From positions 75 through 64,074 of the forward strand of contig CP129472.1 in assembly GCA_030583725.1 (NCBI GenBank): 64,000 nucleotides of DNA. The letters are read 5' to 3'. The notes beneath the pieces are model-generated. The model was not told the DNA's origin, did no database searches, and was given only the letters and a program-made list of their open reading frames with translations. This stretch comes from a bacterium. GTDB taxonomy: Bacteria > Patescibacteriota > Microgenomatia > UBA8517. Numbering within the stretch: the first letter of the stretch is position 1; each line of letters starts with the position of its first letter. Shown here piece by piece: positions 5,186 to 61,256 of this stretch. Both the position numbers and the translations under genes were made by a program.

Positions 5186-7774
5186 ATGGCAGATACAAAC
5201 CTTAGGGTACCACCACATTCGAAAGAAGCAGAGGAAAGTGTTCTTGGAGCCTTGCTTCTAGATAAAGACGCGGTTATCGCTGTTGCAGAGTTTTTATTGC
5301 CAGAAGACTTCTATGATGAAAGAAACAAGGAGATATATGAAGCAATCCTTTCACTTTACGAAGAACGTACCCCGGTTGATGTTTTAACCGTCGCCGAGCG
5401 TCTAAAAAAACAAAAAAATTTAAAAAAAATCGGTGGTTCATCATACTTAACAGATATAGCAAATAAAGTTCCAACTGCTGCCCATGTTGAGCATTATGGA
5501 AAAATAGTTAAAGACCAATCTGTTAAAAGATCATTAATGAAAGCAGCTTCAAGATTGGTAGAGTTTTCTGTTGACGAGAGTATGTCATCTGGTGCTTTGT
5601 TAGATAGAGCAGAGTCTGAGGTTTTTTCCTTAACCCAGAAGCATCTAACCAAAGCTTTTACCTCAGTTCGCGATACTTTAGTGGAAAGTTTTGATAGGTT
5701 AGACGAACTTCATAAAATGGGAGATACTGGTTTACGTGGAATTGCCACAGGTTTTGATGATTTAGATAATGCATTGGCAGGACTTCAAAAAAGCAACCTT
5801 GTAATATTAGCAGCAAGACCTGGGGTTGGGAAAACAACCCTTGCTATGAACATCGCACAGAATGCTTCAGTTAAAAATAAAAAGAATATTGGTTACTTCT
5901 CACTGGAAATGAGCAAGGAAGAGCTAGTTGATAGATTGTTGGTGAACGAAGCTGATATTGATGCTTGGCGATTAAAGACAGGGAAGTTAAGTGAGGAAGA
6001 CTTTACAAAACTTAGTAATGCAATGGGTATTTTGGCTGAGGCTCCTTTATATATAGATGATACCCCCGCCCTTTCAATTCTTGAGATGAGAACCAAGGCC
6101 AGAAGACTACAAGTAGAACAGGGATTAGATATGATAATCGTAGATTATTTACAACTTGCCCGAAGTAGAAATTTAGAAAATAGGGTACAGGAAGTTTCAG
6201 AAATATCACAGGGTCTTAAGAACTTGGCAAGAGAGCTAAAAATCCCCGTTCTTGCTCTTTCTCAGTTGTCTCGTGGAGTTGAATCAAGAAACATTAAAAA
6301 ACCCCAACTATCTGATCTTCGCGAATCTGGCTGTTTATTAGGCGAAAGTTTAATAACTTTATTTCCGTCAGGAGAACGGGTTAGAATTGATTCGCTAATA
6401 GGTAAAACAAACTTTAGTATAATTTCATTAAATTCTAGTTTAAAACTAGAACCATCGCTTGTAAGTAAGGTTTTTCCAAGCGGGAGAAAGAAAGTTTATA
6501 GACTTCTTTTGAAAAGCGGTCGAGAAGTTATTGCTTCAGGAAATCATAAGTTTTTGAAACTAGATGAATGGATTAGGCTCGACAAACTTGAAGTTGGTGA
6601 CAGATTAGCGGTCCCAAGGACGTTGCCTGCGACGGGAAGTGAAAATGTATCAGATGATAGGCTGATAGTTCTAGCACACATGATAGGGGATGGTTGTTAT
6701 GTCAAAAGACAACCAATTCACTACACAAATTCTGATACAGAATTACTAGACATAGTCCAAAAGTCAGCCATAAAAGCCTTTTCGGTCGTTCCGAGAAAAG
6801 TTAAACAAGAAAATTGGTACCATCTTTACCTCTCTTCAAAAGATAAGTTAGCAAGGGGAATCAGGAACCCGATTGTTAAATGGTTTGATGAAGAATTAAA
6901 AATATATGGTCAACATTCTAGGGAAAAAATAATACCTGATCAAATTTTTAAACTTAACAATATTCAAATAAAACTTTTTTTAAATCATCTATGGGCAACA
7001 GATGGATGTATTCATACACAAATTGCTAAAAAATCAAAAGTATCTGTCTATTATGGGTCTGGAAGTAAACTTTTGGCTACTCAGGTTCAACATTTGCTAT
7101 TAAGACTTGGGATAATTTCTAAATTATCAAAATCATCTAAAATTGGTTACGAAGATATGTGGAATGTTCATATTCAGGGGAAGATTGAACAATTAAAGTT
7201 TCTAAGGGACGTGGGTTGTGTTGGTAAAAAGAAAGATGAAGTAACAAAGGCTATTAAATTTTTGAATTCAATCTCAGAAAATCCAAATAATGATGTAGTT
7301 CCAAAAGAAATATGGAATGAAATAAAAAAGATACTGATATCTAAAAATATAACTACGAGAGAATTTCATCAAAAAATGGATTGGGCATATAGCGGAACAC
7401 AAAGATATGGAAATGGAATTAGTAGGGCAAGACTTACTAAAGTTTACAAAATATTAAAGACAGATATTTTAGACAGATATGCACGATCTGACATTTATTG
7501 GGATGAGGTGAAATCAATCAACTATGTAGGAGTCAGAGAAGTTTATGATGCTACTGTTCCAAAAAATTCTAATTTTGTTGCCAATGACATCATTGTTCAT
7601 AACAGCATAGAGCAGGATGCTGACGTTGTTATGTTTTTATGGAGGGAAGACGACGAAAAGGGTGAAAACATTATGCTTGATATTGCCAAACACAGAAATG
7701 GACCTCTTGCCTCAGTGCCACTATTCTTCAAAGGGGATAGAATAAAATTCTTCTCAAGGGACACTAAACATTAA
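5186..7774 (+). CDS. dnaB: Replicative DNA helicase DnaB, interrupted by an in-frame intein
   Basis: DnaB N-terminal domain (SKEAEESVLGALLLD), Walker A ARPGVGKTTLAMNIA, Walker B IIVDYLQL, and C-terminus SIEQDADVVMFLWRED...AKHRNGP. 862 aa with a 424-aa insertion between RESG and SIEQDAD. Confidence 0.9.
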   Translation: MADTNLRVPPHSKEAEESVLGALLLDKDAVIAVAEFLLPEDFYDERNKEIYEAILSLYEERTPVDVLTVAERLKKQKNLKKIGGSSYLTDIANKVPTAAHVEHYGKIVKDQSVKRSLMKAASRLVEFSVDESMSSGALLDRAESEVFSLTQKHLTKAFTSVRDTLVESFDRLDELHKMGDTGLRGIATGFDDLDNALAGLQKSNLVILAARPGVGKTTLAMNIAQNASVKNKKNIGYFSLEMSKEELVDRLLVNEADIDAWRLKTGKLSEEDFTKLSNAMGILAEAPLYIDDTPALSILEMRTKARRLQVEQGLDMIIVDYLQLARSRNLENRVQEVSEISQGLKNLARELKIPVLALSQLSRGVESRNIKKPQLSDLRESGCLLGESLITLFPSGERVRIDSLIGKTNFSIISLNSSLKLEPSLVSKVFPSGRKKVYRLLLKSGREVIASGNHKFLKLDEWIRLDKLEVGDRLAVPRTLPATGSENVSDDRLIVLAHMIGDGCYVKRQPIHYTNSDTELLDIVQKSAIKAFSVVPRKVKQENWYHLYLSSKDKLARGIRNPIVKWFDEELKIYGQHSREKIIPDQIFKLNNIQIKLFLNHLWATDGCIHTQIAKKSKVSVYYGSGSKLLATQVQHLLLRLGIISKLSKSSKIGYEDMWNVHIQGKIEQLKFLRDVGCVGKKKDEVTKAIKFLNSISENPNNDVVPKEIWNEIKKILISKNITTREFHQKMDWAYSGTQRYGNGISRARLTKVYKILKTDILDRYARSDIYWDEVKSINYVGVREVYDATVPKNSNFVANDIIVHNSIEQDADVVMFLWREDDEKGENIMLDIAKHRNGPLASVPLFFKGDRIKFFSRDTKH
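6332..7603 (+). mobile_element. DnaB intein (424 aa) with Hint domain and LAGLIDADG homing endonuclease
   Basis: Begins with Cys right after LSDLRESG (CLLGESLITL) and ends NFVANDIIVHN followed by SIEQD. Two LAGLIDADG-like motifs (LIVLAHMIGDGCY, KLFLNHLWATDGCI). C-terminal block closely resembles the known Ssp DnaB intein. Confidence 0.85.
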
Positions 7775-8001
7775 TTTTGGGGGATATTTTTGTTTATTTT
7801 TTTATTAGTGAACATGGGTTTAGTAGCAAATCCTGACTCTGTCATACGTGTATATGTGCTACCATTTATGCTTAGGCTTCCGCCTATTTTAATATCGTGT
7901 TGTTCAAACAATTTTGATATTGATTCTTCTTCAAGACTTATTTGTTCCCAAGCGGTTTCAGTTGTTAGTGTAACACCGTTTTCACTTACTTCCTTTTTCA
8001 T
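7771..8001 (-). CDS. Small hypothetical protein (76 aa)
   Basis: Non-repetitive ORF in the dnaB-tRNA intergenic space. Weak RBS. Could be a spurious ORF. Confidence 0.25.
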   Translation of the reverse strand: MKKEVSENGVTLTTETAWEQISLEEESISKLFEQHDIKIGGSLSINGSTYTRMTESGFATKPMFTNKKINKNIPQN

Positions 8002-8041
8002 AGTTTAATATAAGTATTATATCATATTTGTCTAATTTTTG

Positions 8042-8124
8042 TGGCTGAGGAGAGAATCGAACTCTCATGGCTTTTATGCCACACGATTTTGAGTCGTGCG
8101 TGTCTACCGTTCCACCACCCAGCC
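8042..8124 (-). tRNA. tRNA-Leu (anticodon CAA), long variable arm, CCA not encoded
   Basis: Reverse complement reads GGCTGGGTGGTGGAACGGTAGACACGCACGA-CTCAAAA-TCGTGTGGCATAAAAGCCATGAGAGTTCGATTCTCTCCTCAGCCA. 7-bp acceptor stem, T-loop TTCGATT, anticodon loop CUCAAAA, extra arm. Confidence 0.8.
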
Positions 8125-8166
8125 TTGGATGTATTTTACCATAAATTAAGATATAATAGCTTCGAT

Positions 8167-8736
8167 ATGGCAAGTGTGAATGCAACAGAATTAAGGGCAG
8201 GTACAGCTTTTTTATATGAAAGCAAGCCTTTTAAAGTAACCAAATACCAGTTGATTAAAATGGGTAGGGGTGGTGCTACTGTGCGTGTTAACTGTGTTAA
8301 TTTGGAGAGTGGTGCAAATGTGGAACATGCATTTTCCAGCAATCTTTCATTTGACTTAATCACTTTAAGTAAGAGAAAACTTCAGTATTTATACAAAGAC
8401 GGAGATATGGCATATTTTATGAACCCTACAAGTTATGAACAAATAGAAGTTCCACTAACGATACTAGGCGATGATGTTGCCTATATCAAAGAGGGCGGAG
8501 AATGCGACATATTATTTTGGAGTGATCGTGCAATGTCGGTTGACTTACCTCCAAAAGTTGTTTTAGGGGTAGTTGAATGTGACCCAGGAGTAAAGGGTAA
8601 CTCTGCTAGTAATTTTTTAAAAAGCGCGAAAATGGAAAATGGTCTTGATGTTAAAGTTCCTTTGTTTATAAAAATGGGTGATAAAATTGTTGTCGATACG
8701 AGGTCGGGAGGCTATGTGGAACGTGCAAAGTTTTAG
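8167..8736 (+). CDS. efp: Elongation factor P
   Basis: MASVNATELRAGTAFLYESKPFKVTKYQLIKMGRGGATVRV. The conserved KxGRG loop carries Lys (beta-lysylation type). The ORF-track start at 8041 overlaps the tRNA and is rejected; ATG at 8167. Confidence 0.85.
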   Translation: MASVNATELRAGTAFLYESKPFKVTKYQLIKMGRGGATVRVNCVNLESGANVEHAFSSNLSFDLITLSKRKLQYLYKDGDMAYFMNPTSYEQIEVPLTILGDDVAYIKEGGECDILFWSDRAMSVDLPPKVVLGVVECDPGVKGNSASNFLKSAKMENGLDVKVPLFIKMGDKIVVDTRSGGYVERAKF

Positions 8737-8752
8737 AACCAAATTCGATTTA

Positions 8753-9217
8753 TTAAGTTAAAAATATCCAGTATAGTGAGGCTATGATAACTACAATTTG
8801 TGTCAACGATCCCCAGAAAATATTGGTGTCTACCTGAATAATTTTTTGAAATTTCATCCAAATGTTAATTGCTTTATTCTTATATCCCCAAAAAAAATAA
8901 GGTCCTTCAACCACATCGGGTGCAATAGAAGCGAAGGACGAAAGCAGAATGTTAAAAAACATTAGTGAGTCAGAACGAAAATAGTAAGCAATAGACCCTA
9001 CCAAAACAGTTGCGCAAGCTAAATCCAAACCTATTATTAATAGTGTTTTGTTGGTAAGTTTGCCATATTTTTTAGTCTCTGTGTTTAGGTGCGGATTCCA
9101 GTGGGGGGTCATATCAAGAAGAAAGTGGCTGGCAAAAGCTAGGGGTATTGAAATTAAAGGATTTGGTATGGCTACTGCAATTGCCGTGCCAAGTGCAACG
9201 TGAGGTGTTTCTAGCAT
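8753..9217 (-). CDS. Hypothetical integral membrane protein
   Basis: 154 aa, about 4 TM helices. No motif recognised. Confidence 0.45.
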   Translation of the reverse strand: MLETPHVALGTAIAVAIPNPLISIPLAFASHFLLDMTPHWNPHLNTETKKYGKLTNKTLLIIGLDLACATVLVGSIAYYFRSDSLMFFNILLSSFASIAPDVVEGPYFFWGYKNKAINIWMKFQKIIQVDTNIFWGSLTQIVVIIASLYWIFLT

Positions 9218-55664: not shown

Positions 55665-56321
55665 TTACGATGATACCATATTTTGAAGCGCGTTTGAAGC
55701 AGCATCTTGTTCTGCCTCTGATTTACTTCTTCCCACACCTAGTGCATTTATTTTGCCATTAATGATAACTTCAATTGTAAATTGCTTGTTATGATCAGGT
55801 CCTTCCTCTGATTTGACTTGGTACTTTGGAGCTGGCATATTACTTGCCTGAACCTTTTCCTGTAGTAGACTTTTAGGGTCTTTAAGTGGCATTTTTGCTT
55901 TCTGGTCCACATCTATAAGTATGTTTTGGTCTATAAACTCTTTTGCTTTAGTAATACCTTGATCTAAGTAAAGAGCACCTATTACTGCTTCAACAGTGTC
56001 GGCAAGTAGTGAGGAGTTGTTTCTACCCCCACCGTCTTCTTCACCTTTTGATAGGAATATTTCTTGACCCAGATTTAACTTTTCTGCCACTTGGCTCAGG
56101 TTTTTAGTGTTAACCAGGTTTGAACGAAGGGCTGTTAAGTACCCCTCTTCTTCATTTGGAAATCGATTATAAATTTCTTCTGAAACTACAAATTCTAAAA
56201 TTGCATCTCCTAAAAACTCAAGTCTTTCATTAGTTCCCCTAGCCTTATCATTTTCATTAACCCAACTTCTGTGGGTTAAGCTTTGTAAATATAAATTTTT
56301 ATCTTTAAAGTGTTTTTTCAT
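55665..56321 (-). CDS. rnc: Ribonuclease III
   Basis: RNase III signature ERLEFLGDAILEFVVSE and C-terminal dsRBD. Confidence 0.9.
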   Translation of the reverse strand: MKKHFKDKNLYLQSLTHRSWVNENDKARGTNERLEFLGDAILEFVVSEEIYNRFPNEEEGYLTALRSNLVNTKNLSQVAEKLNLGQEIFLSKGEEDGGGRNNSSLLADTVEAVIGALYLDQGITKAKEFIDQNILIDVDQKAKMPLKDPKSLLQEKVQASNMPAPKYQVKSEEGPDHNKQFTIEVIINGKINALGVGRSKSEAEQDAASNALQNMVSS

Positions 56322-56658
56322 ATACCGTTCCTAATACTCCATTTACAAAAGAACCTGATGATTCAGAACCGAATTCTTTTGCTAATTCTACAGCTTCATC
56401 AATAATTACTTTGGGTGGAGTATCTTCATTTTTTAATTCATAAATAGCAAGATGTAGTATAGCTAAATCTATTTTGTTTATCTTTTCAATTGGCCATGTC
56501 GGAGCTGAATCAACAATTATCTTGTTTAACTTTTTTTCCTGCTTTTTAATTTTTACAACTAATTCAGGTAACCTTTCTTGTTTAGTAAAACTTTCAGCAA
56601 AAAGAAACCTAACAGCTTCCCTACGTCTTAAGTGTCTTGGGTCAGTTGCAGTCTTCAT
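56305..56658 (-). CDS. nusB: Transcription antitermination factor NusB
   Basis: RRREAVRFLFAESF...IDEAVELAKEFGSESSGSFVNGVLG. Confidence 0.8.
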   Translation of the reverse strand: MKTATDPRHLRRREAVRFLFAESFTKQERLPELVVKIKKQEKKLNKIIVDSAPTWPIEKINKIDLAILHLAIYELKNEDTPPKVIIDEAVELAKEFGSESSGSFVNGVLGTVYEKTL

Positions 56659-56668
56659 GAGTCAATTA

Positions 56669-56824
56669 TTATTTGTATGTTCCACAATGAGGACAGGCCT
56701 TGTGAGGTTCACGAAGTTTGCCACATGATTTACATTTAGATACAGCAGAGAGGGAAGCCTTAAAAGTACTTCTCCTTCTAGTTGTTCGTCCGTGACTATG
56801 TTTCTTCTTTGGTAATGGTGCCAT
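56669..56824 (-). CDS. rpmF: 50S ribosomal protein L32
   Basis: Reverse complement encodes MAPLPKKKHSHGRTTRRRSTFKASLSAVSKCKSCGKLREPHKACPHCGTYK* (51 aa, CxxC...CxxC). Below the ORF-track threshold; a 77-aa shadow ORF in another frame is listed there. Confidence 0.8.
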   Translation of the reverse strand: MAPLPKKKHSHGRTTRRRSTFKASLSAVSKCKSCGKLREPHKACPHCGTYK

Positions 56825-56833
56825 ACATCATGA

Positions 56834-56947
56834 TTATACATTGTTGATAGCTTCTGATGCAAGCTTGATAATTTCAGTTTGTGACCAGTCTGCAATTTTT
56901 AAGTTTCCAAAACCACTTTGCTTTGTTCCCAGTACATCTCCAGCCCT
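56834..56947 (-). pseudogene. Duplicated 3'-terminal fragment of recG (about 100 nt, about 94% identical to 59346-59445); direct repeat
   Basis: Nucleotide alignment GATAATTTCAGTTTGTGACCAGTCTGCAATTTTTAAGTTTCCAAAACCACTTTG... in both places. Encodes ...AGDVLGTKQSGFGNLKIADWSQTEIIKLASEAINNV*, versus the recG C-terminus ...GAGDVLGTKQSGFGNLKIADWSQTEIIKQASEAVNLTH*. Confidence 0.8.
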
Positions 56948-57007
56948 ATAAAGTTTTTGCAACAATTCTCTATTGAATATAGCAATCAAAAGCTTGACAA
57001 TAAGATG

Positions 57008-57013
57008 TATAAT
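57008..57013 (+). promoter_or_regulatory. TATAAT -10 box 8 nt upstream of the rSAM start codon with no SD (possible leaderless transcript)
   Basis: TATAAT at 57008-57013, ATG at 57022, no AGGAGG-like sequence between. TTGACA at 56991-56996 is too close (8-nt spacer) to be a canonical -35. Confidence 0.25.
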
Positions 57014-57021
57014 TACAAGAA

Positions 57022-58392
57022 ATGTCTTCCGAATATAAACCAGAGATAAAAGAGCTTCTGTCTTATGGAAAATATTTTCTAAAATCTGGAGTATTTTTGG
57101 TTGAGGGTCATTCAAGATGTGCGTTATACGATATAAATTCAGGAAATGTTTATTCGTTAGATAAAAATGCACAAAATGTTTTAACTGGTCAATCTGAAAA
57201 TGCTAACTTCTGGGAAAAATTAGTAGGAATGGGATTGTGTGCAGATAACAATTCTAATGAGAAACCAGTATTAAACGAATTAGAAAGCAAATCTACTCTA
57301 CAATTTGCTTGGTTTGAAATAGTTTCAAAGGATTGTAACGAAAGATGTTTACATTGTTACGGTGACTTTATGCCTCCAATTTTTCAAGAAAAAACAACTC
57401 AAAACGATGAAGTTGGGTTGACTTTCAATCAATGGAAAAATCAAATTAAAAATGTTTACGATTTGGGTTGTGAAACATGTCAATTTATAGGTGGTGAACC
57501 CTTTTTGTATAGAGGTGAAGGTGGAGAAACTGTTTTAGAATTAGCAGAATATGCAAAACAATTAGGTTTCAAATTTATTGAAATTTTTACAAACGGAACA
57601 TTACTTACTCAAGAAAAAATTGATCGTATAAAAGATTTAGGAATTAATATTGCTGTTTCTTTATATTCTACTGCTCCTGAAATTCACGACAAAATTACAA
57701 GAACACGAGGAAGTCATAAAAAGACTATGGAAGCCTTAGAAAGGCTCAAAGAAACAGGAGTACCTGTTAGGGTTGAAACTATACTAATGAAACAGAATGA
57801 AGAAAGTGCTGAAGAAACGCAAAAGTTAGTAGACCAAATGGGATTTTCTCACAAAAGGCTTGATGTTTTAAGACAAAATGGTAGAGGAGATAATCTTAAT
57901 TTATTGCCAAGTAATAGATCATTATTAAAAAATGGAATTATGACTGCACCAAATTTTTATATAAATAAGGAGATGTTGTCAAAAAACTTACACAACAATA
58001 GTTGTTTATCTGGAAAAATTGCAATCACAGATAATGGAGATGTTTTACCTTGTGTTTTCTCAAGAGATCAAGTAGTTGGTAATGTTCTTGAAAAATCACT
58101 CTTGCAAATTATAGATGAAGTTAAATTAAAAAGTGTTTGGGATAATACAAAAGATAGTGTTCAAGTTTGTAAAGATTGTGAATTTAGATATTGTTGTACA
58201 GATTGCAGACCCTCATCATTAGGGGCAAATCAAAATACTGGAGAATATCTAACTGCTCCTTATCCAAAATGTGCTTACAATCCATATGATGGAAAATGGG
58301 GAAAGGGATATTGGAAATTAGATTTTGAAGGAAAACCTATATATATTAATATTTTGAAAGGAGGTGAAGAAATAATTGAAAGCAGAACTTAA
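57022..58392 (+). CDS. Radical SAM / SPASM-type peptide-modifying enzyme with N-terminal RRE (PqqD-like) region
   Basis: CX3CX2C cluster CNERCLHC near aa 105-112. Gly-rich SAM-binding motif FIGGEPFLY. C-terminal auxiliary-cluster cysteines (CLSGK...PCVFSRD...VCKDCEFRYCCTDCRP...KCAY). N-terminal ~95 aa resembles a leader-peptide recognition element. Confidence 0.8.
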   Translation: MSSEYKPEIKELLSYGKYFLKSGVFLVEGHSRCALYDINSGNVYSLDKNAQNVLTGQSENANFWEKLVGMGLCADNNSNEKPVLNELESKSTLQFAWFEIVSKDCNERCLHCYGDFMPPIFQEKTTQNDEVGLTFNQWKNQIKNVYDLGCETCQFIGGEPFLYRGEGGETVLELAEYAKQLGFKFIEIFTNGTLLTQEKIDRIKDLGINIAVSLYSTAPEIHDKITRTRGSHKKTMEALERLKETGVPVRVETILMKQNEESAEETQKLVDQMGFSHKRLDVLRQNGRGDNLNLLPSNRSLLKNGIMTAPNFYINKEMLSKNLHNNSCLSGKIAITDNGDVLPCVFSRDQVVGNVLEKSLLQIIDEVKLKSVWDNTKDSVQVCKDCEFRYCCTDCRPSSLGANQNTGEYLTAPYPKCAYNPYDGKWGKGYWKLDFEGKPIYINILKGGEEIIESRT

Positions 58393-58627
58393 TTTAGAAC
58401 CAGAAATTGTTTTAGTAACAGCACAAGGTGCAACTGATGGGGTAATAGTAGCACCATGTACACCAAGTGCTTGTACACCAAATGTTGCATGTAATCCTAA
58501 CACTAATTGTGCACCGTTTAATTGTGCACCAGCGTTAAGACCATGTATGCCAGATTGTGCTCCTGCAACTCCTTGTTATCCAACACAAGGACCATGTGCA
58601 CCAGCATCAAGCTGTTATCCTCGTTAA
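58376..58627 (+). CDS. Cys/Pro-rich precursor-like peptide (83 aa), candidate RiPP substrate
   Basis: TTG start 8 nt after AAGGAGGTGA, overlapping the rSAM gene by 17 nt. 27-aa Cys-free leader then a core with 10 Cys, every one in a C-x-P triplet (CTP, CTP, CNP, CAP, CAP, CMP, CAP, CYP, CAP, CYP). Confidence 0.7.
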   Translation: MKAELNLEPEIVLVTAQGATDGVIVAPCTPSACTPNVACNPNTNCAPFNCAPALRPCMPDCAPATPCYPTQGPCAPASSCYPR

Positions 58628-58628
58628 G

Positions 58629-59297
58629 TTAACTTGGATTAGTGGTGAGTAGATAATCAGGCCAATTATTTGGGTATTTAGTAATTATTTTAGTTGTGTT
58701 TATTATTGCAAAATAATGTTGGTCATTATTTTTAAATAATGATTTGTTTAAGTTAATAAAAAATTTGTCCAGATTTTGTTTATGGTTTGGCCAAAAGATC
58801 TTACTCGCCGAATATTCAGAACATGAAGCAAAAAGTTCTCCATATTTGTCTAATCTATCAGAATAGACATGTCCAAACTCATGTAAAATAGTTGCATAAT
58901 AGCTTTCTTTTGTATGATATGGGTCATTTAAAGTTTTAGAATATTCGTTATGTATTTTAGTAAATGGAGTTAGTAATCCTCCACAAGGACCATTTATGTT
59001 TTTACCAGTTTTTTGTTTCAAAATATTTTTAAACTCTTCGATGTATATACCAGACATCCAAACCTTATGAGATAGATCATCTATTTTTTTAATATTGTGT
59101 AAAAATTTAGATAGCTTGTATTTATTATTAGTTCTTAACCAAACATAAAGATATCTTGAGTCAAAACTGATTACAGGAATATTTTTGATTCTATCTTTGC
59201 ACTTAAATATGTAATTCAATTTTGGATTCCAAAGTGTTTTTAAAGCATTTTCTATTGCAAGTAAGTCATTTTGTGAAGCAATATAGCATTCGAACAT
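58629..59297 (-). CDS. Putative zinc metallopeptidase (HEFGH motif), candidate leader peptidase
   Basis: ATILHEFGHVYSDRL HExxH motif. 222 aa. Convergent, 1-nt gap from the peptide gene. Inside the repeat-flanked insert. Confidence 0.5.
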   Translation of the reverse strand: MFECYIASQNDLLAIENALKTLWNPKLNYIFKCKDRIKNIPVISFDSRYLYVWLRTNNKYKLSKFLHNIKKIDDLSHKVWMSGIYIEEFKNILKQKTGKNINGPCGGLLTPFTKIHNEYSKTLNDPYHTKESYYATILHEFGHVYSDRLDKYGELFASCSEYSASKIFWPNHKQNLDKFFINLNKSLFKNNDQHYFAIINTTKIITKYPNNWPDYLLTTNPS

Positions 59298-59327
59298 GAT
59301 TATATTATACCAAATTTATTGCATAAC

Positions 59328-59445
59328 TCAGTGCGTAAGATTTACAGCTTCTGAAGCTTGTTTGATAATTTCAGTTTGTGACCAGTCTGCAATTTTTAAG
59401 TTTCCAAAACCACTTTGTTTTGTTCCTAGTACATCACCAGCCCCA
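59328..59445. repeat. recG 3'-end copy of the ~100-nt direct repeat (partner at 56834-56947)
   Basis: See the pseudogene fragment entry. The two copies flank 56948-59327. Confidence 0.8.
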
Positions 59446-61256
59446 CGCAGTTTTAGATCAAGTTCTGCAAGTTCAAACCCTGAAGTTGTCTTAGTTAGTG
59501 CTGTAAGCCGTTTAGTTGCCTTGTCTGAGTCGTTCTCTGTGAACAATAGACAATATGACTCTTTTTCACCTCTCCCTACCCTACCTCTAAGTTGGTGGAG
59601 TTGGGCAAGGCCAAATCTATCTGCACCTTCTATTAACATAATAGTTGCATTTGGGATATCTATTCCTACCTCAACAACTGGGGTTGAGAGTAGAATGTCT
59701 AGTTTTTTACTTTTAAATTCATCAAGTACTTTATTTTTTTCAACTTCTTTCAATTTTCCATGAAGTAGTCCAATTTCAAGTTGTGGAAAAATAACCTTTA
59801 AGTTTTCATATTCCTTTTTTACAGACTTAACTGATTTTAGTGTTTCTGCTTCTGACTCTTCAACTAATGGACATATGATAAATGCTTGAGAACTATTGTC
59901 TTTAATAGTTTTTTTAATCCAGTCATATGCTTTCTCTCTTTTGTCATTTGGAACAAGCCATGTTTTTATTTTCTGTCTGTTTTTGGGCAACTCATCTAAA
60001 ATGGACAAATCCATATCAGAAAATAAAGTTTGGGCAATCGTTCTTGGTATAGGTGTAGCTGTCATTGTTAATAAATGTGGATTAATTTTTTGCATAAAGT
60101 TAACTTGTTTGACTCCGAACTTGTGCTGTTCATCAATTACTAATAGCCCAACTTTTTCAAAAGTTTTATTTAATAGCGCATGTGTTCCTACAATTATGTC
60201 ATTAACGCCTAGGTCTGATTTTACTACTGTACCTGTTATTAAAGATATTCTAATGGGGAGATTTTTAAATAGTTCCTTTAGTGTTTGATAGTGTTGGTTT
60301 GCAAGTATCTGGGTTGGAGCAAGAAAGACAGTCTGAAACCCAGAAAGAAAAGTTGTGTAGGCTGAAATTGCAGAGACTATTGTTTTTCCACTACCAACGT
60401 CACCCTGTAGTAGCCTATTCATTGGGGTGTTTTTGGATAGGTCATTAAATATTTCATCTAAATTTTTAACCTGTGAATTAGTCAACTTAAAAGGTAAGGA
60501 TTTGATAAAAGTATCAATCAACTTTTTGTTTACTTTAATTACTACTCCCCTTTTCTTAATTAGTTTGTTTTTTCTTTCTCTAGCTTTAACAAGTAGGTCA
60601 AAGAATTCATTAAAGGCTAGTCGCTCTTTTGCCTTCTCAGAACTTTTCAGGTTTTTAGGAAAATGAATATTATAAATCGCTTCTTTAAAACTTATCAGAT
60701 CGTTTTTGCTTAAAATGTCTTGACTTAAAAAGTCTTTAACTTCAATTCTATCTAGTGCATATTTAATTCTTGCCTTTAGCCACTTTGAAGTTAAGCCTGC
60801 AGTTTCAGGATATACCCCTACAATTTTAGCAGTGTGAATTGTTTCTTGGTTTTGATCAATCCTCTCAAATTGTGGTGAGAAAAAAGCAAGTTTTCTGTTA
60901 AACCAACTAGGTTTACCAGATATCATAAGTTTGATACCTGGGTAAAGCATTTTGGTTAGATAGGACTGGTTAAACCAGACCAAGTAAATACTTCCGGTTG
61001 TATCTTTAATTTGTCCAATTTGCATTGATCTTCCTGTTTTTGTTGGTTGGTTTTTAATTGAAGTTACTTCCCCAAAAACTGATACTATTTCATCAACTTT
61101 TAAGTCGTTAATTTTTGTAACCTTGCTAAAATCCAAATATCTGTGTGGAATGTGATGAAGTAAATTAGATACTGTTTCAATCCCCAGTATTTTTAATTTT
61201 TTTTGATAATTTGGTCCAACAAATGGAAGATCAGATACGGAGTCTGTAAGATTCAT
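59328..61256 (-). CDS. recG: ATP-dependent DNA helicase RecG
   Basis: Wedge/OB N-terminus, Walker A LLQGDVGSGKT, DEQH box, helicase C-terminal LRGRVGRG, C-terminal GDVLGTKQSG. 642 aa. Confidence 0.9.
   Translation of the reverse strand: MNLTDSVSDLPFVGPNYQKKLKILGIETVSNLLHHIPHRYLDFSKVTKINDLKVDEIVSVFGEVTSIKNQPTKTGRSMQIGQIKDTTGSIYLVWFNQSYLTKMLYPGIKLMISGKPSWFNRKLAFFSPQFERIDQNQETIHTAKIVGVYPETAGLTSKWLKARIKYALDRIEVKDFLSQDILSKNDLISFKEAIYNIHFPKNLKSSEKAKERLAFNEFFDLLVKARERKNKLIKKRGVVIKVNKKLIDTFIKSLPFKLTNSQVKNLDEIFNDLSKNTPMNRLLQGDVGSGKTIVSAISAYTTFLSGFQTVFLAPTQILANQHYQTLKELFKNLPIRISLITGTVVKSDLGVNDIIVGTHALLNKTFEKVGLLVIDEQHKFGVKQVNFMQKINPHLLTMTATPIPRTIAQTLFSDMDLSILDELPKNRQKIKTWLVPNDKREKAYDWIKKTIKDNSSQAFIICPLVEESEAETLKSVKSVKKEYENLKVIFPQLEIGLLHGKLKEVEKNKVLDEFKSKKLDILLSTPVVEVGIDIPNATIMLIEGADRFGLAQLHQLRGRVGRGEKESYCLLFTENDSDKATKRLTALTKTTSGFELAELDLKLRGAGDVLGTKQSGFGNLKIADWSQTEIIKQASEAVNLTH

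Follow-up and report, generated by a model that had tools for sequence, protein, structure and literature searches.

A window of 64,000 nucleotides (nt) from a bacterium of the Patescibacteriota (Microgenomatia; contig CP129472.1, positions 75 to 64,074) carries a compact group of three open reading frames (ORFs). They encode a radical S-adenosylmethionine (SAM)/SPASM enzyme, a small peptide whose Cys residues all lie in C-x-P triplets, and an HExxH protein (Table 1). Together they probably represent a self-contained cassette for a peptide made by the ribosome and modified after translation (RiPP), belonging to an uncharacterised family centred in the Microgenomates of the Candidate Phyla Radiation (CPR) and modifying the C-x-P triplets. 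In CPR bacteria, or Patescibacteria, whose genomes measure about 0.8 Mb, secondary metabolism is generally considered to be nearly absent. RiPP systems with a leader, a radical SAM/SPASM maturase and a protease are of a well-known kind; what the sources searched do not describe is this code in the precursor, the clade of the enzyme, the family of the protease and the taxonomic home. The family is not described in Pfam, NCBIfam or PADLOC, in the literature searched (most subscription-journal papers lying outside its scope), or in the accessible part of the radical SAM compendium of Precord et al.

Table 1. Features of the cassette and of the flanking recG repeat (positions in the window)
Feature	Position	Strand	Remarks
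Cassette (radical SAM enzyme, C-x-P peptide, HExxH protein)	57022-59297	mixed strands	three ORFs
Radical SAM/SPASM peptide maturase, 456 aa	57022..58392	+	WKZ25757.1
Maturase N-terminal domain, predicted peptide-binding (RRE-like)	residues 1-~93	+	
Maturase CX3CX2C motif, CNERCLHC	residues 105-112, nt 57334-57357	+	
Maturase SPASM 7-Cys region	residues 328-417, nt 58003-58272	+	
Shine-Dalgarno sequence AAGGAGGTGA of the precursor gene	58358..58367	+	read from sequence; within the last maturase codons (KGGE)
Precursor peptide, 83 aa	58376..58627	+	ORF list, homologues, synteny, shuffle test, substitutions, fusions
Precursor leader, with conserved EPEIVLVT	residues 1-27, 58376-58456	+	
Precursor core, 10 C-x-P triplets	residues 28-83, 58457-58624	+	
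HExxH protein, stand-alone gluzincin-fold zinc metallopeptidase, 222 aa	58629..59297	-	WKZ25759.1
HEFGH motif of the metallopeptidase	residues 139-143, nt 58869-58883	-	putative third ligand E154
Relic recG 3' end, left arm of 114-nt direct repeat	56844..56957	-	89% identity to 59341-59454
Right repeat arm, inside the functional recG 3' end	59341..59454	-	
recG	59328-61256	-	

The precursor peptide follows a nearly absolute rule. All ten Cys of the window peptide have Pro at position +2, and the first 27 residues are free of Cys. Shuffling of the core gave a mean of 2.3 C-x-P triplets and a maximum of eight, and all ten were reached in 0 of 200,000 trials. Across 37 peptides of the family, Pro stands at +2 of 297 of the 303 Cys, and positions -1, +1 and +3 are variable. 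The leaders have in common the motif EP(E/T)IxLV(T/S); the cores, of 40-60 aa, differ in sequence and in motif number, C-x-P being the only conserved element. The window precursor has 15 called homologues. The peptide genes of two close relatives (loci L001 and L002 of the genome scan described below) differ by 11 synonymous versus 4 nonsynonymous codons, and the peptide frame is under purifying selection. The ORF begins with a TTG codon placed right behind an in-frame TAA, 8 nt downstream of a perfect Shine-Dalgarno (SD) sequence, AAGGAGGTGA, and the gene overlaps the end of the maturase gene by 17 nt. In-frame translations of other loci show that KGV or KGG (AAGGAG-type) is also encoded just before the peptide start. 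An earlier note, made from the letters of the window, had described this coupling of the 83-aa ORF to the maturase gene, the TTG start and the division into a Cys-free leader of 27 aa and a core with all ten Cys in C-x-P; its coordinates and sequence features proved correct throughout when compared with the ORF list and read directly. Its further remark that an all-C-x-P precursor fits no recognised family also stands, as the peptide has no Pfam or NCBIfam match at E<=1 and no counterpart in the literature searched.

Tails without Cys and very rich in proline, such as KAPEPPRPFPRPPCYPG and DPRPPGPPKPPGPN, close many cores of the family. They are found in L001 (6382-6618), L002, L016, L005, L006 and L024, as well as in the proteins P0128-P0135, and resemble proline-rich antimicrobial peptides; the window core is without such a tail.

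The same arrangement recurs in many genomes. A genome scan returned 30 loci, and the peptides were counted in the 25 of them with sequence downstream of an orthologous enzyme gene. At 24 of these 25 loci the enzyme gene is followed on the same strand by a short ORF with the Cys-free leader motif and a C-x-P core, which is what the earlier note had proposed to look for beside radical SAM genes of relatives. In 16-17 of 27 loci a homologue of the HExxH protein is encoded convergently with the peptide, and the cassette loci compared have no other conserved neighbour genes. The three genes had been taken for a tight unit, and because their order and orientation are kept across dozens of genomes, this comparison supports a real RiPP-type functional unit. 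Neither of two outcomes named in the note as refuting, the lack of a radical SAM/SPASM match and a peptide that is not kept in relatives, was observed. Homologues of the enzyme over its full length number at least 120 cluster representatives (47-87% identity). The organisms named among the best 120 are almost only Patescibacteria/Microgenomates (Woesebacteria, Roizmanbacteria, Levybacteria, Daviesbacteria and 'Patescibacteria group'), contrary to the suggestion in the note that such chemistry would be unexpected in a CPR genome; judged by these relatives, the cassette family is centred in the CPR/Microgenomates and is typical there. Cassette loci also occur in WWE3, Amesbacteria, Curtissbacteria, Saccharibacteria, two Chloroflexota metagenome-assembled genomes (MAGs) and two gut Clostridia MAGs. 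The enzymes of the latter (L022, 6234-7653; L023, 1384-2759) are only 34-35% identical, and their Asp-rich peptides contain 10-11 C-x-P triplets. Moreover, there are two independent natural fusions, in different cluster representatives of the protein database: in P0116 (539 aa) and P0095 (521 aa) the enzyme continues in frame into a leader (…KPEITLVTGGG…) and a C-x-P core.

The fusion of an enzyme to its own RiPP substrate is unusual, and P0116 and P0095 could possibly serve as convenient single-gene expression constructs. Several loci (L008, L010-L012, L015, L017, L024 and L026) come from bins titled 'uncultured Gammaproteobacteria' or 'Pseudomonadales'. The enzymes of these bins are 46-56% identical to those of the CPR, and on this sequence comparison the taxonomic labels look doubtful.

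This conservation bears on the possibility that nothing is modified. The 83-aa ORF might then encode a small metal-binding or structural protein rich in Cys and Pro, or might be no gene, and the radical SAM enzyme would act on an unrelated substrate. Small Cys-rich proteins can indeed bind metals, the cassette is without a transporter, and the peptide is known from its sequence. Such an explanation is nonetheless highly improbable in view of the strict same-strand adjacency to the enzyme at 24 of the 25 loci, which range over Patescibacteria, Chloroflexota and Clostridia, the strong SD sequences and translational coupling, the conserved Cys-free leader motif in front of a variable core, the in-frame fusions, and the synonymous excess between close relatives. 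A peptide-derived cofactor of the pyrroloquinoline quinone or mycofactocin type was also considered, since a protease but not a transporter belongs to the cassette; it is unlikely for a core so long and variable, in which only C-x-P is conserved.

The enzyme passes both of the relevant Pfam profiles, Radical_SAM (PF04055; 91.7 bits against a gathering threshold of 29.5, E 7.6e-26) and SPASM (PF13186; 31.8 bits against 21.5, E 1.8e-7), which bears out the description of a radical SAM protein with a CX3CX2C motif and a C-terminal SPASM-type Cys cluster. In an alignment of 25 sequences, C105, C109 and C112 of the CX3CX2C motif are invariant, and so are the SPASM residues C328, G339, C344, C383, C386, C392, C395 and C417 (Cys spacing: C328-x15-C344, C383-x2-C386-x5-C392-x2-C395, C417). 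No eighth conserved Cys is found in the SPASM domain of these sequences. By analogy with CteB, the seven Cys may leave an open iron site for a substrate thiolate.

Its relationship to curated families is more distant. The best NCBIfam scores are those of generic SPASM enzymes (AhbD, 108 vs a cut-off of 500; TIGR04053, 101 vs 395; NirJ2, 99.5 vs 500). Of the peptide maturase models, StsB reaches 91.3 vs 625, AlbA 69 vs 850 and MftC 74 vs 265, the sactisynthases StsB and AlbA being the best full-length RiPP maturase models. The model TIGR03942 of the anaerobic sulfatase-maturating enzyme (anSME) scores 57.3 bits vs 349.45, and several peptide maturase models score higher than this. Taken by itself, the SPASM domain gives a good alignment to the grasp-with-spasm maturase model (93 vs 175), and no SCIFF or Pap maturase model is found among the best 25 of 69 NCBIfam matches. 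PADLOC matches to the anti-phage viperin pVip were also obtained (67-74 bits). A defence system was rejected because they cover only the generic radical SAM core, residues 102-285; with the viperin model of NCBIfam the enzyme reaches 65.7 vs 180.

A structure model (AlphaFold2) was made on the fusion P0116, whose enzyme part is 47% identical to the window enzyme. The mean predicted local distance difference test (pLDDT) value is 74.5, and most of the enzyme part lies at 85-97. Residues 3-55 form four strands followed by two helices (pLDDT 85-91), and a short strand is predicted for the leader motif PEITLVT, where the pLDDT is about 74 vs 44-50 on its flanks. In Foldseek comparisons the enzyme is equally near to SkfB (the top match), anSME, SuiB, PqqE and CteB, and the alignments span the whole length of SuiB, CteB and TigE, which bear a RiPP recognition element (RRE). 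Going by the model, the fold is placed among RiPP maturases, and an RRE-like nature of the N-terminal domain is plausible. One of the loci, L017, has two radical SAM genes: the first is split, and the second (7593-8966), immediately past the protease gene, lacks the N-terminal domain.

On the favoured explanation, the precursor would be translated by coupling to the maturase gene, and the N-terminal domain of the enzyme would bind its EPEIVLVT leader, which probably adds a beta-strand to it. Repeated action on the core would follow, with the C-x-P triplet (ten here) as the unit of both recognition and modification. In each case the Cys sulfur would be joined to a carbon in or beside its own triplet, the +2 Pro being the prime candidate acceptor, so as to yield a string of small rings; the convergent gluzincin would then take off the leader. 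Some triplets abut directly (CSPCSPC), a Cys-Cys spacing of three having been seen 11 times, and the peptides of L014 and L018 stop exactly on the Pro of the last triplet (...GCRP); thus, the modified unit cannot depend on a residue past +2. In radical SAM peptides of the repeat type, the residue in fixed register is the acceptor (PapB, CxxxD; NxxcB, NxxC; triceptides, aromatic-x-X). Since the fixed-register residue is the partner elsewhere, a link from the Cys sulfur to a Pro carbon is the one favoured here. The presence of seven and not eight conserved Cys in the SPASM domain is consistent with such a product. A short-range thioether within the triplet is tentatively proposed by this analogy, with a confidence that falls somewhat short of even. 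The more specific form, in which each triplet becomes a ring of three residues through a thioether from its Cys sulfur to a carbon of its +2 Pro, is rather unlikely when taken by itself.

The same data can be read in terms of a classic sactipeptide or ranthipeptide, in which each Cys would be linked to a C-alpha, C-beta or C-gamma outside the triplet, such as that of an Asn, Asp, Ser or Thr at +3 or of a residue far off, and the Pro would only shape the turn. To our knowledge, every characterised radical SAM/SPASM enzyme that combines a leader-binding domain with a Cys-rich substrate makes thioethers. StsB and AlbA are the best full-length RiPP maturase models and SkfB the top structural match, and position +3 is enriched for N, D, S, T and E (counts among the 303 Cys: N 56, A 49, D 44, S 28, T 27, E 17, F 15, C 11). 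However, +3 is not conserved, and a +3 link fits only the triplets with D, N, S or T at that position (in the window core, D or N is found in 4 of the 10). Likewise, abutting triplets and peptides that end at Pro do not suit it, the core has its Cys at even intervals over its length, with no separate acceptor half of the kind seen in sactipeptide hairpins, and none of the sactipeptide and SCIFF models comes near its cut-off. This alternative is therefore considered unlikely. The class proposed in the earlier note holds only in part: a RiPP-type unit is upheld, but its assignment to the sactipeptides or ranthipeptides is unproven, as the maturase models lie far under their cut-offs and the fold is equally near to several enzymes.

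Another reading is an anSME-like oxidation, by which the Cys of C-x-P would be converted into formylglycine or another Cys-derived residue (such as D-Cys) and the Pro would give the turn. It recalls the C-x-P-x-R motif of sulfatases, where anSME abstracts a hydrogen from the Cys and Pro provides the turn. On the other hand, the TIGR03942 score is low, no core motif of the window has Arg at +4, and up to ten aldehydes in one peptide would be unprecedented and highly reactive. Furthermore, anSMEs are without a leader-binding domain and have eight auxiliary-cluster Cys ligands, compared with seven here. Taken together, this makes the oxidation quite improbable.

It is important to note that a number of observations weigh against the proposal of a C-x-P-modifying RiPP cassette. 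We infer the modification itself from the logic of the motif alone, and we know of no precedent for a Cys-to-Pro thioether. No NCBIfam model is passed by the enzyme, every curated maturase model being far below its cut-off, and a sequence search of the PDB found weak relatives only (TigE/8VPO, 1.5e-10; SkfB, 1.6e-8). Eight N-terminal domains gave no Pfam match, RRE profiles included, at E<=10, a profile search of the PDB with this domain found no solved RRE sequence, and the peptide core of the P0116 model has a pLDDT below 35. As for the gene set, L010 is the sole exception among the 25 loci, having no peptide downstream of the enzyme gene; the cassette is devoid of genes for a transporter, immunity or a regulator; and the protease family is missing from about a third of the loci. 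Two GNAT acetyltransferase genes take the place of the HExxH protein in L022 and L023, and in three further loci a different HExxH ORF of about 250 aa (…DFKFEINKG…) adjoins the enzyme (L010, 3975-4697; L012, 6632-7402; L015, 1922-2677).

This arrangement is that of the subgroup with acidic CSPD/CGPD cores. The alternative ORF was rejected as a member of the window protease family (hhalign probability of 0.5% for the L012 copy) and, on this comparison, may be a non-homologous replacement.

The protease of the cassette has no Pfam or NCBIfam family, and no match to the Pfam M1 family either. A profile search of 1.84 billion representative proteins found 129 relatives, 114 of them at E<=1e-10; the full-length ones are nearly all stand-alone proteins of 220-300 aa, and the remainder are shorter fragments. 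GGLLTPF and HEFGH are invariant in the family alignment, as is an E…A.C motif downstream. The structure model has the thermolysin/M1-type gluzincin fold of the zincins, with HExxH and, as putative third ligand, a downstream Glu, both of them invariant, in agreement with the description of an HEFGH metallopeptidase convergent with the precursor. The window protein belongs to a subgroup of 221-237 aa, the majority of the family being of about 280 aa; this subgroup lacks some 41 residues between the HExxH and Glu helices and some 13 residues further downstream. Its confident model and the existence of six sister sequences speak against a pseudogene. The traits of M1 aminopeptidases are not those found here, as the protein is a single domain of 222 aa and has GGLLTPF where GxMEN stands. 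M1-type gluzincins remove the leaders of class III lanthipeptides, and from this analogy we infer that the obvious role of the protease would be the removal of the precursor leader.

Compared with known systems, the cassette combines familiar and distinct features. Ranthipeptides (PapB/freyrasin, CxxxD; NxxcB, NxxC) and SCIFF peptides (CteB) differ in having as partner Asp, Asn or Thr at +3 to +5, in place of the Pro at +2. They also usually have an S8 or C39 protease or a transporter, whereas the cassette has a dedicated gluzincin and its home is the CPR/Microgenomates, in addition to the lack of a match to SCIFF or Pap models. The enzyme is not a member of the sactipeptide synthases (SkfB, AlbA, StsB) by the StsB and AlbA scores, and the peptide does not show the sactipeptide arrangement of Cys in the N-terminal half facing acceptors in the C-terminal one. 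The substrate of anSME is a folded sulfatase, not a small leader-bearing peptide, and the cassette enzyme adds an N-terminal domain and has seven conserved SPASM Cys, not eight. The triceptides obey the same logic, with many autonomous three-residue motifs per core and one radical SAM/SPASM enzyme; their first position, however, is Trp, Phe, Tyr or His and the link is C-C, while the Cys of the cassette would give a C-S link. With respect to AplP-like M1 leader peptidases and thermolysin-like gluzincins, the proteases of the cassette family are single-domain proteins of 222-290 aa in which GGLLTPF replaces GxMEN.

A conserved, mobile and CPR-native RiPP cassette offers a specific and inexpensive experimental handle on these bacteria and could reveal a molecule of uncultured episymbionts. 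Its near-absolute C-x-P rule provides a clean substrate code for a radical SAM/SPASM enzyme without a characterised relative, repeat-motif maturases are attractive for peptide engineering, and the protease that accompanies it marks out a small family of gluzincins, unannotated in Pfam and NCBIfam. If true, a Cys-Pro thioether would be a new link among natural products, the sulfur counterpart of the triceptide cyclophanes, and genome-reduced CPR bacteria would make rigid, poly-cyclic, proline-rich peptides, possibly for interaction with a host. Multiple formylglycines, if these were the product, would represent a new use of a known chemistry, and any chemistry that the enzyme carries out would widen the known repertoire.

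The precursor and protease genes converge, with stop codons 1 nt apart (58625-58631); in several other loci the two stop codons share a TTAA (L001, ~6618-6621; L002, ~6429-6432; L006; L016). As no room is left between them for a terminator, overlap of the two transcripts is unavoidable, and the precursor may be subject to antisense regulation. A scan of 56700-59500 found no terminators and 15 promoter-like sites, against 13.3 expected, and Rfam gave no RNA elements in 56000-60000.

In the window genome the cassette sits between rpmF and recG, bracketed by the two arms of the direct repeat, which are 2497 nt apart and enclose some 2.5 kb. A minus-strand ORF at 56834-57172 ends in ...RAGDVLGTKQSGFGNLKIADWSQTEIIKLASEAINNV, matching the C-terminus of recG, and the relic copy still reads as about the last 37 recG codons. 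The flanking genes are closest to those of Woesebacteria (nusB 83%, rpmF 88%, rnc 75%, recG 63-72%). The cassette of L001 (4741-9446) occupies the same rpmF-recG site and has no relic. In L002 (5001-7262, 8731-10832) rpmF and recG are adjacent, leaving the site empty, and the cassette is found a few genes off, past rnc, rpsP and KH-domain genes; its radical SAM gene is split into ORFs of 96 and 284 aa, which reflects either a frameshift or a fault of the assembly. At its very end the relic is closer to the end of the L002 recG than to that of the recG of the window itself. The cassette is an insertion at the 3' end of recG. It may have come about when a circular DNA bearing the cassette and a recG 3' fragment integrated by a single crossover, an event that would give the pattern of repeat and relic seen here. 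Because the cassette occupies two sites in the closest Woesebacteria and recG is duplicated here, this comparison indicates that the three genes move together and that their acquisition in the window genome was recent.

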